From an uncultured Gammaproteobacteria bacterium (GTDB lineage: Bacteria > Patescibacteriota > Microgenomatia > UBA10105 > UBA927), in the NCBI GenBank assembly GCA_964573695.1, contig CAZNKB010000004.1, forward strand, positions 78,214-142,213: DNA of 64,000 bases, in the 5' to 3' direction. Positions 13,630 to 21,724 of the stretch are shown piece by piece. The position numbers were made by a program, and so were the translations under genes. The notes under the pieces were generated by a model that saw nothing but the letters and a program-made list of their open reading frames with translations, was not told the origin of the DNA and made no database searches. Position 1 is the first letter of the stretch; the number at the start of each line of letters is the position of its first letter.

Positions 13630-13704
13630 CTGGTGCCAGCGGCAGGGATCGAACCTGCGACAAATGCCTTATGAAGACACTGCTCTACCACTGAGCTACG
13701 CTGG
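13630..13704 (-). tRNA. tRNA with CAT anticodon (elongator tRNA-Met or lysidine-modified tRNA-Ile2)
   Basis: Reverse complement GCCAGCGTAGCTCAGTGGTAGAGCAGTGTCTTCATAAGGCATTTGTCGCAGGTTCGATCCCTGCCGCTGGCACCA folds as cloverleaf: 7-bp acceptor, TTCGATC T-loop, anticodon loop TTCATAA, encoded CCA. Confidence 0.8.
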
Positions 13705-13948
13705 CTATACGAACTATTTAGTTTATTAACACTGCTCCCGCCTCTTCGGCGGGTCGCCGATGAGGCGACTACCACTGATACACCGGCCTGTATATGCACA
13801 TTTTATCAAATTGGCCTGATAAGGCAACCCGTACAATATCCTGTTTACATGATACAATAGAGCTATTCAACCACTCTGATCGTATGCTTTGCTCTTGTGC
13901 TTAACAGGTACGTGATAGATTGGTGTAAGTGGGAGGTGAGTATAATTC

Positions 13949-15712: not shown

Positions 15713-16735
15713 TTGCTATGCTACGATAATACCATGAAGATCGGGTTTTTTGAAACAGAAGAGTGGGAAAAGGAATATCTCGAAAAAGCGCTTTCCGATC
15801 ACCAGCTCGTGTTCAATAGTGAGCCCCTTACAGTGGATACTGCCAACGACGTGATCGACTGCGATGTTCTCTCGACTTTCATCTACTCTCCTCTCAAAGG
15901 CGACCTCCTCGCTCGTTTTTCCAATCTCAAGCTCATAGTAACACGCTCAACCGGCTATGACCATATTGATTTGGAATACTGCAAGAACAAAAATGTCGCT
16001 GTTTGTAATGTGCCCACCTACGGGATAAACACCATTGCCGAACATACATTCGCCCTGATGCTTGCACTGACCCGACGCCTTATTCCCTCTGTGGACCGCA
16101 CGCGCCGGGGAAACTTTGCTCTTGACGGTCTCAGAGGAGTTGAGCTGGCTGGAAAAACATTGGGCATCGTTGGCTTTGGACACATCGGGAAACGCGTCAT
16201 GGAGCTAGCAAAGGCGTTCCGGATGAACGTGGTTGTCTATACAAGACATCCAGAGGCATCATCCCCAGACGAACACGTCCAGTTTGTCGACCTGCCGACA
16301 CTTTTGGGTACGTCAGATATCGTGAGCCTCCATGTGCCTCTAATCGCTGAAACAAAGCACATGCTCAATAAGAAGAATATCCCGCTCATGAAAAAAGGCA
16401 GCATCCTTATCAACACCGCCCGCGGAGCAATTGTGGAGACAGAAGCAATCTTGTGGGCACTGGAGCAAGGTGTTCTTTCCGGTGTAGGGCTTGATGTGTT
16501 GGAAGAAGAATGCGTGCTCAAAGAAGAGCGGGCACTTCTGACGCACGAGTTTTTGGCAACGTGTGACCTCAAAACGCAGCTTCTTAACCATGTTTTGATT
16601 ACGAAAGAAAACGTTATTATTACTCCGCACAATGCCTTCAATAGCCAGGAGGCATTGCAGGAGATTCTCCTGACTACTGTGAAAAACATCGAGGCGTGGC
16701 AAGAGGAGAGGTCTCAAAATAGAGTGACCTCATAA
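15713..16735 (+). CDS. D-isomer-specific 2-hydroxyacid dehydrogenase (D-lactate/phosphoglycerate dehydrogenase family)
   Basis: 340 aa; NAD-binding GIVGFGHIGKRVMELAKAF; catalytic region …TPHNAFNSQEA. Confidence 0.75.
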   Translation: MLCYDNTMKIGFFETEEWEKEYLEKALSDHQLVFNSEPLTVDTANDVIDCDVLSTFIYSPLKGDLLARFSNLKLIVTRSTGYDHIDLEYCKNKNVAVCNVPTYGINTIAEHTFALMLALTRRLIPSVDRTRRGNFALDGLRGVELAGKTLGIVGFGHIGKRVMELAKAFRMNVVVYTRHPEASSPDEHVQFVDLPTLLGTSDIVSLHVPLIAETKHMLNKKNIPLMKKGSILINTARGAIVETEAILWALEQGVLSGVGLDVLEEECVLKEERALLTHEFLATCDLKTQLLNHVLITKENVIITPHNAFNSQEALQEILLTTVKNIEAWQEERSQNRVTS

Positions 16736-16769: not shown

Positions 16770-16842
16770 TGGTTGCGGGGCTGGGAATCGCACCCAGCCT
16801 AGGAGATTATGAGCCTCCTGTGCAACTTTACACTACCCCGCG
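16770..16842 (-). tRNA. Initiator-type tRNA-fMet (CAT) with C1·A72 mismatch
   Basis: Reverse complement CGCGGGGTAGTGTAAAGTTGCACAGGAGGCTCATAATCTCCTAGGCTGGGTGCGATTCCCAGCCCCGCAACCA; 5' CGCGGGG and 3' CCCCGCAACCA ends identical to E. coli tRNA-fMet; anticodon loop CUCAUAA. Confidence 0.75.
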
Positions 16843-18019: not shown

Positions 18020-18065
18020 TTTTATGATACCAAAATTTTGTCCTATTTGACGTTTATGTTATACT

Positions 18066-18402
18066 GTGGGTCACAAGTAAACCCCGATGAGATCGGGGTA
18101 AATAAAAGCGCATGAGGAAATTGATTGGGATTTTCTCTTTTTAGCCTCAAGCTAAGCGCTGACAAGGCTATCCGCCGATAAGGCAGAATGTATTGTCCGG
18201 AGCCGAAACCGTCAAAAGACAGGAACGAGTGTCGTAAACAAACGGAGCTCGTCAAGAATGAGGTTATCCTCAACTGACGCCCCGATCTGATCGGGGTTAT
18301 TTGTAGGGAGAGGATAATACAAGCAGGGTGGCACCGCCGTAAGAAGGCCCCTGCAAGTTTTTCAGGATATTCCTGAGGAATTTGCAGGGGCTTTTTTGAT
18401 GC
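18066..18402 (+). promoter_or_regulatory. T-box riboswitch leader (predicted tRNA-Trp responsive) with intrinsic terminator
   Basis: T-box core AGCAGGGTGGCACCGCCG at 18322-18339 (consensus AGGGUGGNACCGCG, N=C); terminator GGCCCCTGCAA…TTGCAGGGGC + TTTTTT at 18346-18397; ~330-nt untranslated leader upstream of an operon ending in trpS. Confidence 0.65.
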
Positions 18403-18424
18403 GGAAAACAAATAGGAAAATTTT

Positions 18425-18826
18425 ATGAAAACACATATTACGTTGGTCAATATTCGAAAGCTTATAGCACATGAGCGGGTTGATGCAGCGCGCCTGCGTT
18501 CGGTGCGTGCGAATATACGTGCAAAACAGGTAATCCGCAGGCCTGTGATAGTTGACAGAGCCTCGCATGTGATCCTGGACGGTCATCACCGTGTCCGTGT
18601 GCTTTGGGAGATGGGAGCAAAACGGGTGCCGGTTTTATACGTCCGGTACAAGGATGCCAAAATCTGTGTGCAGCTTCGCAGAAAAGATATGTTGTCGGCT
18701 ATATTGAAGCGCTATGTACTGGATATGGCCGTAAATGGAAAGCTTTTTCCGTCAAAAACGACGCGGCATATCCTTCCCGGCAGAAGGGCAATGCGGGCAA
18801 TACGCATAAAAGAATTGCTGGAGTAA
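18425..18826 (+). CDS. ParB/Srx (ParB N-terminal domain-like) small protein
   Basis: 133 aa; HVILDGHHRV motif typical of ParB/sulfiredoxin-fold domain; first gene after T-box leader. Confidence 0.45.
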   Translation: MKTHITLVNIRKLIAHERVDAARLRSVRANIRAKQVIRRPVIVDRASHVILDGHHRVRVLWEMGAKRVPVLYVRYKDAKICVQLRRKDMLSAILKRYVLDMAVNGKLFPSKTTRHILPGRRAMRAIRIKELLE

Positions 18827-18847
18827 CACTATGCATACATATATGTT

Positions 18848-20245
18848 TTGGAAAAGCAGGGGGAGGGAATATTGGCGGTATACGCTTCGTCCGTGGTGTC
18901 GGTGAATATAAAAAGCAAGAAAGGAACTATATTTATGAACATACAAACAACATATAAACAGGAGATGCCGGATTCGTATCTGAATATCTCCTATTACTTA
19001 AACAAATACCTGCATGAATTGCCGGAGCCGCCGTTGGATCCTAAAACCAAGCGGCCGATAGGTCCCGAAGCGCTTGCACGGTTGTTTCCGCAGGAATTGA
19101 TTAGGCAGGAGGTAACACTTGCAGAATTCGTGCCGATTCCGGAAGAGGTGCAGGAATTGTACCGAATGTACCGGCCTACGCCGTTATTACGGGCGACAAG
19201 GTTGGAAAAGGCGTTGGGTACTCCGGCAAGGATATATTTTAAATACGAAGGAGTTTCCCCGGTGGGGAGCCATAAACTCAATACGGCACTCGCGCAGGCA
19301 TACTACAACAAAAAAGAGGGTGTCCGAATGCTTACGACGGAAACAGGGGCAGGTCAGTGGGGATCGGCACTTGCACTTGCCTGCAGGCTTTTTGACATGA
19401 AGTGCAAGGTGTTTATGGTCAAGAGTTCGTATGCCCAAAAGCCGTACCGTAAAACCGTCATGCATCTTTATGGGGCAGAGGTGACGGCGAGTCCGTCACG
19501 GGAAACACACTCAGGAGCCGAATTTCTTTCCCGCGACCCTGATACGACAGGGAGTCTCGGAATGGCGATATCCGAAGCAATAGAGGTGGCAGCAACGACC
19601 GAAGGCGCGCATTATGCCTTAGGAAGCGTGTTAAATCACGTGTTGCTTCACCAGACCATTATCGGGCAGGAGGCAAAACTGCAGCTTATGAAACAGGATA
19701 TTGCCCCTGACGTTGTGATCGGCTGTTGCGGGGGAGGGAGCAACCTGGCGGGTATCAGTTTTCCGTTCCTAGCGGATAAGCTGTCCGGAAAAAGGAAGGC
19801 GCTCCGCGTGGTGGCGGTAGAGCCCGAGGCGTGCCCGTCACTCACCCGCGGAGAATACCGGTACGACTCCGGTGATTCTGCAGGCATGACGCCTCTTATG
19901 AAGATGTATACGGTCGGAAGTGATTTCGTTCCGCCTGCGATTCATGCCGGCGGCCTGCGGTATCATGGGGATTCGCCGCTCATAAGTTTTCTGTATCATA
20001 AGAAGCTTATTGAAGCAGCGGCCTTCAGTCAGCAGGATGTGTTCAGGGCAGCAGAACTATTTGCGCAAACAGAGGGGATTATTCCGGCGCCGGAATCGTC
20101 GCATGCCATAGCACAGGTAATCTATGAGGCGGCGCGCGCGAAAAAGGAAGGTAAGAGGACCGTTATACTGTTTAATCTTTCCGGGCACGGGCTGCTGGAC
20201 CTCGGGGCATACGAGGAATTTTTGCAGGGAGGACTGTACACATAA
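18848..20245 (+). CDS. TrpB2-type tryptophan synthase beta-like PLP-dependent enzyme (standalone, no trpA nearby)
   Basis: 465 aa; PLP-lysine region [24 protein letters not shown] glycine loop; TrpB2-length N-terminal extension. Confidence 0.7.
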
Positions 20246-20296
20246 ATAACGGTACGTGATTCCTGCCCGGTTTTCGGGCAGGAATCACGTGATACA

Positions 20297-21724
20297 ATGC
20301 AAAGGAGGAAATCTATGAAACGATTATTATCAGGAATTACACCAAGCGGGGACGGAAGCTTACATATCGGTAATTATTTGGGGGCCGTGCGGCAGTTTAT
20401 TGAGCTTGCAAAAACCCACGAAACATACCTGATGGTGGCTGATCTCCACGGGCTTACGACTATTCAGGATAAAACCCGATTGCAGCATAACATCGAAACG
20501 CTTGTGTTAAATGAACTTGCCTTGCTCCGGGGATTTTTGACGGAAGAACAGTTCAGTAAAATCATATTTTTCCGTCAATCCGATGTGACCATGCATACGG
20601 AGTGCCAGTCGATTCTTAACAACGTGACGCCCTTGGGACTTCTTAAGCGGGCCCACGCGTATAAAGATAAATTGCAAAAAGATGTCATGGAAGATGATAT
20701 AAATGTCGGTTTATTTAGCTATCCGATGCTCATGGCGGCGGATATTTTGTTGTACAAACCGGATTTGGTCCCGGTTGGTAAAGATCAGAAACAGCATATC
20801 GAAATAACCCGGGATATCGCTGAGAGATTTAACAAAATTTACAAAAAGAACGTGTTTAAGCTCCTTGAGCCCTATATTCCGGATGAAGTCGCGGTGATCA
20901 TGGGTACGGACGGAAAACGGAAAATGAGTAAAAGCCTGGGTAATGTTATCGCCATATTTGAGTCTGAAGATGTGATACGTAAACAGGTTATGGGGACGTA
21001 TACCGACCCCACTAGAAAACACGTAACTGATCCGGGTCATATCGAAGGGAATATGGTGTTTACGTACCTTGAATTTTTTGGAGAGCCGGCCCGCATCGAT
21101 TCGCTTAAAGAATCCTATAAAGCCGGCAACGTATCCGACGTGGAGGTGAAAGAATATTTATTTGATAGTCTCATGACATTTTTTGGTCCAGCACGGAAGG
21201 CTTATGAAGAATTAAAGAGCAATCCGGAAGTGGTGAAGGATATTCTTAAGTACGGCCAGGCTAGGGCACTAGCTGTCGCCGTAGAAACCATGAAAGGCGT
21301 CCGTGAAGCCACAGGAATCACAACGGGTTATTCGTTTTTCGAGTACGCGAAGCCTAGAGCGGGAAGTTCTATTTCCATAGAGGATTTTGCCCGGGTGGAG
21401 GTTCGTGTGGGGCGCGTTGTGAAAGCTACCAACAAAGAGGGGAGTGAGAAACTTATCCGTTTGGTGGTAGACATAGGAGAGAAAGTGCCCCGCATTGTAT
21501 TTACAGGGGTTCGAGGATTTGGGTACACGCCAAAAGATTTTGAAGGTAAACAATTTCTTTTTATCACCAACCTCATGTTTCGGAAGATGATGGACGAGGA
21601 AAGTCAGGGGATGATCCTTGCTGTGGACTCGCCTCGCTTAAGCTCCGGCGAAGCGGGCGGGGTAGATAAGAAGCCACAATTTATTTCCGCCGAAGGTATG
21701 CCGGTTGGATCCAAAATTCGCTAA
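20297..21724 (+). CDS. trpS: Tryptophan--tRNA ligase fused to C-terminal tRNA-binding (Trbp111/EMAP-like OB-fold) domain
   Basis: 475 aa; HIGH-type GDGSLHIGNYLGA; KMSKS (KRKMSKSLGN); C-terminal FARVEVRVGRVVKATNKEGSEKLIRLVVDIGE typical of the tRNA-binding OB-fold found on MetRS/PheT. Confidence 0.8.
   Translation: MQRRKSMKRLLSGITPSGDGSLHIGNYLGAVRQFIELAKTHETYLMVADLHGLTTIQDKTRLQHNIETLVLNELALLRGFLTEEQFSKIIFFRQSDVTMHTECQSILNNVTPLGLLKRAHAYKDKLQKDVMEDDINVGLFSYPMLMAADILLYKPDLVPVGKDQKQHIEITRDIAERFNKIYKKNVFKLLEPYIPDEVAVIMGTDGKRKMSKSLGNVIAIFESEDVIRKQVMGTYTDPTRKHVTDPGHIEGNMVFTYLEFFGEPARIDSLKESYKAGNVSDVEVKEYLFDSLMTFFGPARKAYEELKSNPEVVKDILKYGQARALAVAVETMKGVREATGITTGYSFFEYAKPRAGSSISIEDFARVEVRVGRVVKATNKEGSEKLIRLVVDIGEKVPRIVFTGVRGFGYTPKDFEGKQFLFITNLMFRKMMDEESQGMILAVDSPRLSSGEAGGVDKKPQFISAEGMPVGSKIR

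Follow-up and report, generated by a model that had tools for sequence, protein, structure and literature searches.

A small SerK-like protein encoded beside a stand-alone TrpB2 in a candidate phyla radiation bacterium, and its possible role in tryptophan salvage

The 64,000-nucleotide (nt) stretch of DNA analysed here (positions 78,214 to 142,213 of contig CAZNKB010000004.1, assembly GCA_964573695.1; "the window" below) comes from an uncultured bacterium of the candidate phyla radiation (CPR). It contains a short gene for a 133-amino-acid (aa) protein of the ParB/sulfiredoxin (Srx) fold, followed on the same strand, after a spacer of 108 nt, by trpB2, which encodes a stand-alone pyridoxal phosphate (PLP)-dependent enzyme of the TrpB2 type. 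A leader that resembles a T-box element precedes the two genes, and trpS, for tryptophanyl-tRNA synthetase (TrpRS), follows them (Table 1). The closest loci are found in Candidatus Gottesmanbacteria genomes, with identities of 75% and 93% for the small protein/TrpB2 pair. An initial annotation of this DNA had suggested that the small protein is a serine kinase that supplies O-phosphoserine to TrpB2. We found that this protein, referred to here as mini-SerK, belongs with the free L-serine kinases SerK and SbnI in sequence and predicted fold, and that its family is encoded next to TrpB2 in many lineages of bacteria and archaea.

The motif DGHHR, from which the initial annotation had recognized the ParB/Srx fold, occupies residues 52-56 of the protein. 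No Pfam family matched the protein at the gathering cut-off, the sole match being ParBc_2 at 14.8 bits against a cut-off of 23.6. When the protein was compared with the PDB sequences by phmmer, the top matches were 1vk1, the SerK orthologue of Pyrococcus furiosus (E = 3e-9), 5x0b, the SerK of Thermococcus kodakarensis (8e-8), and SbnI (1.5e-7); the next match, a ParB nuclease, was at 0.37. A family profile built from 27 homologues gave E values of 6.8e-25 for SerK and 3.9e-13 for SbnI, against 0.017-0.05 for Noc, ParB and sulfiredoxin, and the only NCBIfam families that matched the protein were those of SerK and SbnI. The alignment with SerK runs in two stretches, residues 5-103 with 18-118 and residues 92-131 with 202-241, the latter including FP-x-KTTRH; as aligned, the 133-aa protein is SerK minus its central segment. 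DGHHR and KTTRH (residues 111-115) both align with SerK. Glu17 aligns with SerK Glu30, the residue mutated in the E30A/E30Q entries of the PDB (5x0e/f/g and 5x0j/k), and is invariant in 141 distinct family members. The residues conserved in the protein are His16-Glu17, Asp52-Gly-His-His-Arg56, Lys95 and Pro109-x-Lys-Thr-Thr-Arg-His115. Across the family, invariance or near-invariance is seen at His16, Glu17, Pro40, Pro69, Tyr75, Lys95, Lys111, Thr112 and His115, to the same degree in members linked to TrpB2, members linked to cysteine synthase and unlinked members.

The predicted structure agrees with these comparisons. An AlphaFold model made with 69 sequences had a mean local confidence (pLDDT) of 83 and a predicted template-modelling score (pTM) of 0.74. 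In Foldseek comparisons, the query-normalised template-modelling (TM) score of the model was 0.83 with SerK-AMP and 0.75 with SbnI-ADP, against at most 0.49 with Noc/ParB and about 0.4 with sulfiredoxin. Neither Pfam nor the model revealed a helix-turn-helix or a C-terminal dimerisation domain; the protein consists of the N-terminal-type fold with a short C-terminal strand and helix. The catalytic cysteine of the sulfiredoxin motif FGGCHR is also absent, the corresponding site being DGHHR with no cysteine at that position. Thus, both the ORF (open reading frame) as read and the predicted structure bear out a 133-aa DGHHR protein of the ParB/Srx fold, and both profile and structure place it with the free-serine kinases rather than with ParB, Noc or sulfiredoxin.

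The downstream gene was taken for trpB2 in the initial annotation, and the curated family models confirm this assignment: the product scored 628.3 bits against TIGR01415 (trpB_rel; cut-off 518.85) and 690.9 bits against NF009057 (cut-off 366), and its best solved relatives are the TrpB2 structures of Sulfolobus solfataricus (6hul, 2e-131; 4qys, 1e-117). The active-site aspartate of TrpB1 is replaced by arginine in TrpB2 (Merkl 2007, PMC1854888). Accordingly, the enzyme of the window has GGLRYHG where the TrpB1 of a related locus (L026, see below) has AGLDYAG, with arginine at the aspartate position, and 70 TrpB2 proteins linked to the family carry the same arginine (LRY). TrpB2 is described as phosphoserine-dependent (Busch 2014) and as binding indole tightly (Hettwer & Sterner 2002), both as cited in PMC11917138; by analogy, the enzyme of the window would use phosphoserine as well. 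The statement that the window lacks trpA also held: a tblastn search of the 64 kb with the bona fide TrpA of locus L026 gave a best E value of 0.85, and a search with the TrpB1 of that locus found a single TrpB.

The mini-SerK family is large and mostly hidden under general names. A word-indexed search returned 75 clusters named 'ParB N-terminal domain-containing', 'hypothetical' or 'transcriptional regulator', and one family entry of the Joint Genome Institute (JGI) bears the name 'L-serine kinase (ADP)'. In an exhaustive profile search of 1.84 billion cluster representatives, 5,560 matched at E <= 1e-3, 1,904 at <= 1e-10 and 337 at <= 1e-30; most of the best 150 representatives are 125-160 aa long. 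We examined the gene neighbourhoods of the best 80 of 520 relatives (one genome per species) and of the best 80 of 428 metagenome relatives, the latter found with the family alignment, since patterns from the single protein were too specific and gave no match. The two sets have some assemblies in common and are thus not fully independent. In 75 of the 160 loci the immediate neighbour was TrpB2; either gene may come first, and the stop codon of one often overlaps the start codon of the other. The linkage was found among bacteria in Gottesman-, Roizman-, Magasanik- and Beckwithbacteria, Saccharibacteria, Gracilibacteria, Bacillota/Clostridia and Ignavibacteriales, and among archaea in Nitrososphaeria, Thermoproteota, Korarchaeota, Micrarchaeota and Methanodesulfokora. 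We therefore rejected chance adjacency, and the co-occurrence with TrpB2 elsewhere, on which the initial suggestion depended, is well documented. In at least 12 CPR loci trpS adjoins the pair. A gene for a TrpR-like repressor is adjacent in 7 of the first 80 loci; in other CPR lineages such a gene lies upstream in place of the T-box-like leader. In three CPR loci (L006 7845-8549, L008 and L015) a gene of about 233 aa that resembles aspartate/glutamate racemases by eye lies in or beside the cluster of trpB2, the kinase-like gene and trpS.

The second recurrent partner is cysteine synthase, which was the immediate neighbour in 19 of the 160 loci; long-form cysteine synthases adjoin the gene in Acidilobaceae, Desulfurococcales, Sulfolobales and Thermofilum. 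The one neighbour that was compared, from Acidilobaceae, is closest to Aeropyrum pernix CysO (1wkv), at 3.5e-52 against about 1e-23 for acetylserine sulfhydrylases. CysO is an archaeal O-phosphoserine sulfhydrylase. It belongs to pathway Cys2 (PMC5120207). Gene fusions join the same two partners: P0177 is an intact mini-SerK fused to CysK/M, the CysK/M part passing its cut-off at 395.7 bits, and P0082 consists of a mini-SerK, a degenerate second copy and a CysO-like enzyme. The partnership with CysO is independent evidence that the product of the family is phosphoserine.

In P0082 (residues about 165-260), in P0142 and at the N-terminus of the protein encoded at L073 4652-5845 on the minus strand, the N-terminal extension of the CysO type itself looks like a degenerate mini-SerK in which DGHHR is lost (for example, ...APVIVNRQLEVIGNNETCDTLKRLGARFVPVVF). 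This points to a kinase domain having been taken up by these enzymes in the past. Other arrangements of the family domain were also seen. In Kerfeldbacteria (L039 4564-6399) it lies C-terminal to a protein of about 480 aa that by inspection is like adenylate-forming enzymes, with an aminotransferase-like gene next in line. In P0131 it is joined to the end of a nucleotidyl transferase, in P0175 it precedes an FNR-type NAD-binding domain in a fusion, and in long low-complexity proteins (P0076-P0081) it is duplicated in tandem.

A further small ORF, with three Trp codons, lies in the spacer between the mini-SerK gene and trpB2. It was present in all eight loci that have a spacer of about 100 nt (the window, L001 at about 6407-6517, L002, L003, L004, L006, L082 at 832-906, and L083), and is absent where the two genes abut. 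Its core, K-S/T-x-G/R-R-E-Y-W-R, is kept through synonymous changes (arginine AGG/AGA/CGA and CGG/CGC/CGA, glutamate GAA/GAG, tyrosine TAT/TAC), with one Trp codon invariant, and the variable sites in the last nine codons number 4, 2 and 8 at the three codon positions; the tail varies in sequence and length. An RNA element was considered as the cause of the conserved block and rejected, since RNAalifold found no conserved pairs in it and no complementary partner lies nearby; for these reasons we read the block as a coding sequence. A classical trp leader-peptide attenuator was likewise rejected: the Trp codons are present, but the spacer has no conserved RNA structure or terminator. As far as the sequences tell, the ORF may encode a Trp-responsive leader, arrest or regulatory peptide for trpB2-trpS, or a micro-protein.

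The initial annotation had placed the genes under T-box control by tryptophan. The leader contains the T-box motif AGGGUGGCACCGCC, a putative specifier hairpin with a UGG triplet, and antiterminator and terminator helices that exclude each other, and conserved internal stems lie between the specifier hairpin and the antiterminator. Eight leaders keep this architecture with 18 compensatory pairs, including changes in the terminator; UUGG in a hairpin loop is invariant across the related leaders, and the specifier stem differs between subtypes (GAGGAAAU/AUUUUCUC versus GAUCCGG/CCGGGUC). The z-score of the leader fold is -8.8. A canonical long Stem I with K-turn and distal platform was not identified in the leader, which has the short hairpin with the UUGG loop instead. 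At gathering cut-offs Rfam reported two tRNAs and no T-box in the window, and no T-box in five related loci; in a permissive scan of the window the T-box model RF00230 reached 17.2 bits (gathering 93), among chance-level matches. As the curated model was not reached, the status of T-box rests on motif and structure: the motif, the antiterminator, the terminator and the UUGG loop speak for the proposed control, and the Rfam score does not. Five relatives have a gene for tRNA-Trp (CCA), with discriminator G, between the terminator and the kinase-like gene (L002 5926-5999 and L006 5917-5990; by eye also in L083, L084 and L085); it is absent at this place in the window. The discriminator G fits the bulge of the antiterminator, which reads UGGC or UGGU, and, as the tRNA gene lies downstream of the T-box terminator, the leader would also control its transcription. 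From its sequence, the leader probably ties the operon to tryptophan limitation.

Some features of the leaders stand apart from this architecture. Two near-identical hairpins occur in the leader of the window, at 18081-18099 (ACCCCGATGAGATCGGGGT) and 18279-18297 (GCCCCGATCTGATCGGGGT); the first is absent from the related leaders, and the minimum-free-energy fold pairs the two segments into a long-range helix. Palindromic insertions are found in or after related leaders (CCCCTCGAAGTCC...GGACGAAGTGGGG in L004 and L083), and an insert of about 130 nt is common to L082 and L084.

Table 1. Features of the mini-SerK/trpB2 locus (positions in the window)
Feature	Position	Strand	Basis or remark
Promoter-like site: TTGTCC, 16-nt spacer, TATACT, TG preceding the -10 hexamer	18038..18065	+	Consensus match and conservation
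Leader	about 18040-18420	+	Upstream of the 133-aa ORF
T-box-like leader, putatively tRNA-Trp-specific	18100..18398	+	Motif, alternative helices, conservation
Putative specifier hairpin, loop UGAUUGGG	18114-18121 pairs with 18130-18137; UGG 18126-18128	+	Read from sequence
Putative antiterminator	helix A1 18323-18328/18349-18354; bulge UGGCACC 18329-18335; helix A2 18336-18338/18346-18348	+
Putative competing terminator, 20 bp and U-run	18346-18392	+	Mutually exclusive with antiterminator
mini-SerK gene, 133 aa, ParB/Srx fold	18425..18826	+	ORF, homology, predicted structure
Small ORF with three Trp codons, between mini-SerK gene and trpB2	18831..18905	+	Conservation
trpB2, stand-alone TrpB2-type PLP enzyme, 436 aa	18935..20245	+	Curated family scores
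Hairpin, perfect 16 bp, GC-rich, no U-run on the + strand	20254..20290	+	In the trpB2-trpS spacer
trpS, tryptophanyl-tRNA synthetase with C-terminal tRNA-binding domain	20315..21724	+	ORF opens at 20297
ftsH	3' of trpS	+

Upstream of the leader, the block TATGnTATACT of the promoter-like site is kept in related Gottesmanbacteria loci, and promoter-like consensus matches in the region occur at a chance-level count. Co-transcription of the mini-SerK gene and trpB2, as claimed initially, is plausible from the arrangement of the genes: they lie on one strand, no terminator-like site was found in the 108-nt spacer, and in other lineages their stop and start codons overlap. A trpB2 start at TTG 18848 was rejected for ATG 18935, which is the most likely start because MNIQ... 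is where the homologues begin to align and a ribosome-binding site lies upstream of this ATG. For trpS, ATG 20315 is likelier than the annotated ATG 20297 because of the ribosome-binding site AAAGGAGG, which the ORF from 20297 probably takes in. The spacer of 51 nt between trpB2 and trpS contains a hairpin that may act in processing, stability or partial termination; at the corresponding position L003 and L004 bear a hairpin whose sequence is unrelated. The C-terminal tRNA-binding domain of TrpRS is PF01588 and resembles the C-terminus of MetRS and CsaA. Further upstream, a generic D-2-hydroxyacid dehydrogenase gene (15713-16735, +) and two tRNA-Met genes (16770-16842 and 13631-13705, both -) keep their synteny in L001-L003; no evidence that they belong to the operon was found. 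We considered the dehydrogenase as a SerA-type link to phosphoserine and dropped it, because it scored below every family cut-off, and the tRNA gene and two minus-strand genes intervene before the operon.

Taken with the homology, it seems probable from the sequence comparisons and the model that the 133-aa protein phosphorylates serine and thereby supplies O-phosphoserine for the salvage of indole to tryptophan by TrpB2. Mini-SerK would be a free L-serine kinase of the SerK/SbnI lineage in its minimal form. It would move a phosphoryl group from a nucleotide onto the hydroxyl of free serine; Glu17 is the predicted base, and DGHHR and KTTRH would bind the phosphates and the substrate. ATP is reportedly the donor for SbnI and the Desulfurococcales enzymes. 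The adjoining TrpB2 would then convert O-phospho-L-serine and indole to tryptophan and phosphate, TrpRS would charge the tryptophan onto tRNA-Trp, and uncharged tRNA-Trp would switch the operon on through the T-box-like leader. Such a module would be complete in itself for the salvage of indole into Trp-tRNA, in a CPR bacterium for which no trpA is in view. That the product is phosphoserine is argued by the two kinds of partner, since TrpB2 and the CysO-type synthases share exactly one unusual substrate, O-phosphoserine; the activity as a kinase, serine as the substrate and the phosphate donor are likewise read from sequence, and are put forward as probable assignments. The size of about 130 aa should be no obstacle. 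Sulfiredoxin catalyses phosphoryl transfer and, with the same fold in about 110 aa, is a complete ATP-dependent phosphotransferase; ATP-Mg-bound sulfiredoxin (3cyi) was among the Foldseek matches of the model.

Several observations weigh against the proposed serine kinase. The score against the SerK equivalog model NF053625 was 57.9 bits where the cut-off is 380, and the protein is therefore better not classed as a SerK orthologue. It has no counterpart for some 85-100 residues in the centre of SerK (approximately 119-201), and the full architecture of SerK and SbnI, about 240-255 aa, is absent. Because ILDGHHR was required by the search pattern, its invariance in the fetched loci is uninformative. 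A SerK-like protein was found to bind CTP, not ATP, in a survey of the ParB-CTPase fold (2025, PMC12704722), and Tk-SerK, the T. kodakarensis enzyme, uses ADP (PMC5120207); in view of the CTP-binding protein, the donor cannot be assumed, and there are precedents or reports for each of ADP, ATP, CTP and polyphosphate. In 66 of the 160 loci no PLP-dependent partner was found nearby, several of these being on contigs too short to show one. In a locus of Moraniibacteriota (L026 3554-6381) the gene lies downstream of a canonical trpB1 (AGLDYAG) and a 271-aa trpA-like ORF, and not of a trpB2; phosphoserine is not expected to be needed there, and the locus is a poor fit to a strict TrpB2 role. Finally, the strong basicity of the protein (isoelectric point (pI) 11.6, and 10-12 in most family members in alignment A2) would suit a nucleic-acid binder too.

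The missing central segment raises the possibility that the small protein is a non-catalytic subunit that binds a nucleotide or phosphoserine and serves as a regulator or scaffold of fold-type II PLP enzymes such as TrpB2 and CysK/CysO, activating them or gating their substrate. The degenerate N-terminal copies of the CysO type, which lack DGHHR, show that the fold can act as a non-catalytic appendage of these enzymes, and tight linkage and fusions would fit a physical complex equally well. However, the protein of the window is unlike these copies, and the glutamate, DGHHR and KTTRH are invariant in hundreds of diverged members, even those without a PLP neighbour, as is typical of an active enzyme; we therefore regard such a non-catalytic role as unlikely. 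A different possibility is that the protein, while indeed a kinase or phosphotransferase of small molecules within the SerK lineage, has another substrate, such as a different hydroxy-amino acid, or works in the opposite direction (for example, phosphoserine + AMP -> serine + ADP), and that its link with TrpB2 and CysK is indirect. The donor varies within the lineage, as seen with Tk-SerK and the CTP-binding protein, and the fusions with adenylate-forming-like (L039), nucleotidyl transferase (P0131) and FNR-like (P0175) partners are to unrelated enzymes. Since O-phosphoserine is all that the recurrent partners TrpB2 and CysO have in common, and both terminal motifs are among the residues shared with SerK, this possibility appears distinctly unlikely.

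The protein could also be a ParB-like nucleic-acid binder, either a nuclease or a regulator of transcription or RNA of the trp genes, much as SbnI has been credited with a regulatory role. The fold is that of the ParB N-terminal domain, and the basicity described above is in keeping with it; the SerK orthologue of P. furiosus was once reported as a nuclease (PMC5120207), SbnI was deposited as a 'bifunctional transcriptional regulator', and one relative is named 'transcriptional regulator' by NCBI. Yet the 133 residues leave no helix-turn-helix or dimerisation domain, the likeness to ParB and Noc is marginal in both profile (E >= 0.017) and structure, and the members from Poseidoniales are acidic (pI about 5). 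Moreover, a DNA-binding regulator would not be expected to be fused to CysK, or to lie beside TrpB2 or CysO where these genes come under three kinds of control (T-box, TrpR-like and archaeal). We consider it very improbable and retain the supply of O-phosphoserine by a small serine kinase as the preferred explanation. A wider claim is offered only tentatively, and we would not expect all of it to hold: the family of about 130 aa would be the minimal serine-kinase core and supplier for both TrpB2 and CysO, and the small ORF would encode a new Trp-responsive peptide. In Gottesmanbacteria, the same claim would give the order T-box, tRNA-Trp in some, serine kinase, Trp peptide, trpB2 and trpS, induced by starvation.

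TrpB2, which is often found without TrpA and in vitro was shown to use O-phosphoserine, has been puzzling ever since its distinction from TrpB1. If the preferred explanation is true, a dedicated kinase beside TrpB2 in dozens of lineages would explain why this enzyme uses phosphoserine rather than serine, and the salvage hypothesis would become a two-protein experiment. To our knowledge, neither a physiological source of phosphoserine nor a conserved genomic partner of trpB2 was known before. The thousands of proteins now called 'ParB N-terminal domain-containing' or 'hypothetical' (the 5,560 representatives above) would gain a function, and mini-SerK would be the smallest serine kinase known. 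The finding would bear on the supply of tryptophan and cysteine in CPR and DPANN organisms. For biocatalysis, a pair of the kinase and TrpB2 would render the synthesis of tryptophan analogues effectively irreversible.

Among the known systems, Tk-SerK (TK0378) and its P. furiosus counterpart PF0380 are the best match in both sequence and structure, with the His-Glu pair, DGHHR and FP-x-KTTRH common to both sides. Tk-SerK is likewise tied to a pathway with a phosphoserine-using cysteine synthase (PMC5120207); it differs in its length of 242 aa against 133 aa, and the partner here is TrpB2. Makino et al. found clear SerK homologues only in four archaeal genera of Thermococcales and Desulfurococcales (Makino 2016, PMC5120207), whereas members of the mini-SerK family occur in CPR bacteria, Bacillota, DPANN and numerous further archaea. 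The closest precedent in logic is SbnI-SbnA of Staphylococcus aureus, in which a SerK-like kinase is encoded, in one operon, beside a fold-type II PLP-dependent beta-replacement enzyme that uses its product, and SbnI is the second-best relative of the family in both profile and structure. However, SbnI has about 254 aa, carries DGVHR and no KTTRH, is also described as a regulator, and serves a pathway to a siderophore precursor, not tryptophan. Sulfiredoxin has the same fold, a similar size and ATP-dependent phosphotransfer, but its catalytic cysteine lies in FGGCHR, its substrate is a protein sulfinic acid, and the likeness is marginal (E = 0.04; TM about 0.4).

With regard to the partners, the enzyme of the window is a clear TrpB2 with arginine for aspartate, like those of Thermotoga maritima and S. 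solfataricus (4qys, 6hul, 6hte). No conserved neighbourhood had been found for trpB2 outside trp operons (Merkl 2007, PMC1854888); that of the window lies without trpA, beside a kinase-like gene and trpS. Orthologues of A. pernix CysO (1wkv), which come second among the recurrent neighbours of the family and are also found fused to it, are absent from the window. Our literature search, which covered few subscription journals, found no paper linking TrpB2 with a serine kinase or ParB-like protein; the salvage module, called undescribed at first, is so within the literature searched, and a prior mention is possible. In comparison with these systems, the enzyme lineage and the chemistry of TrpB2 are known; what is new is the minimal architecture, its wide distribution and its pairing with TrpB2.

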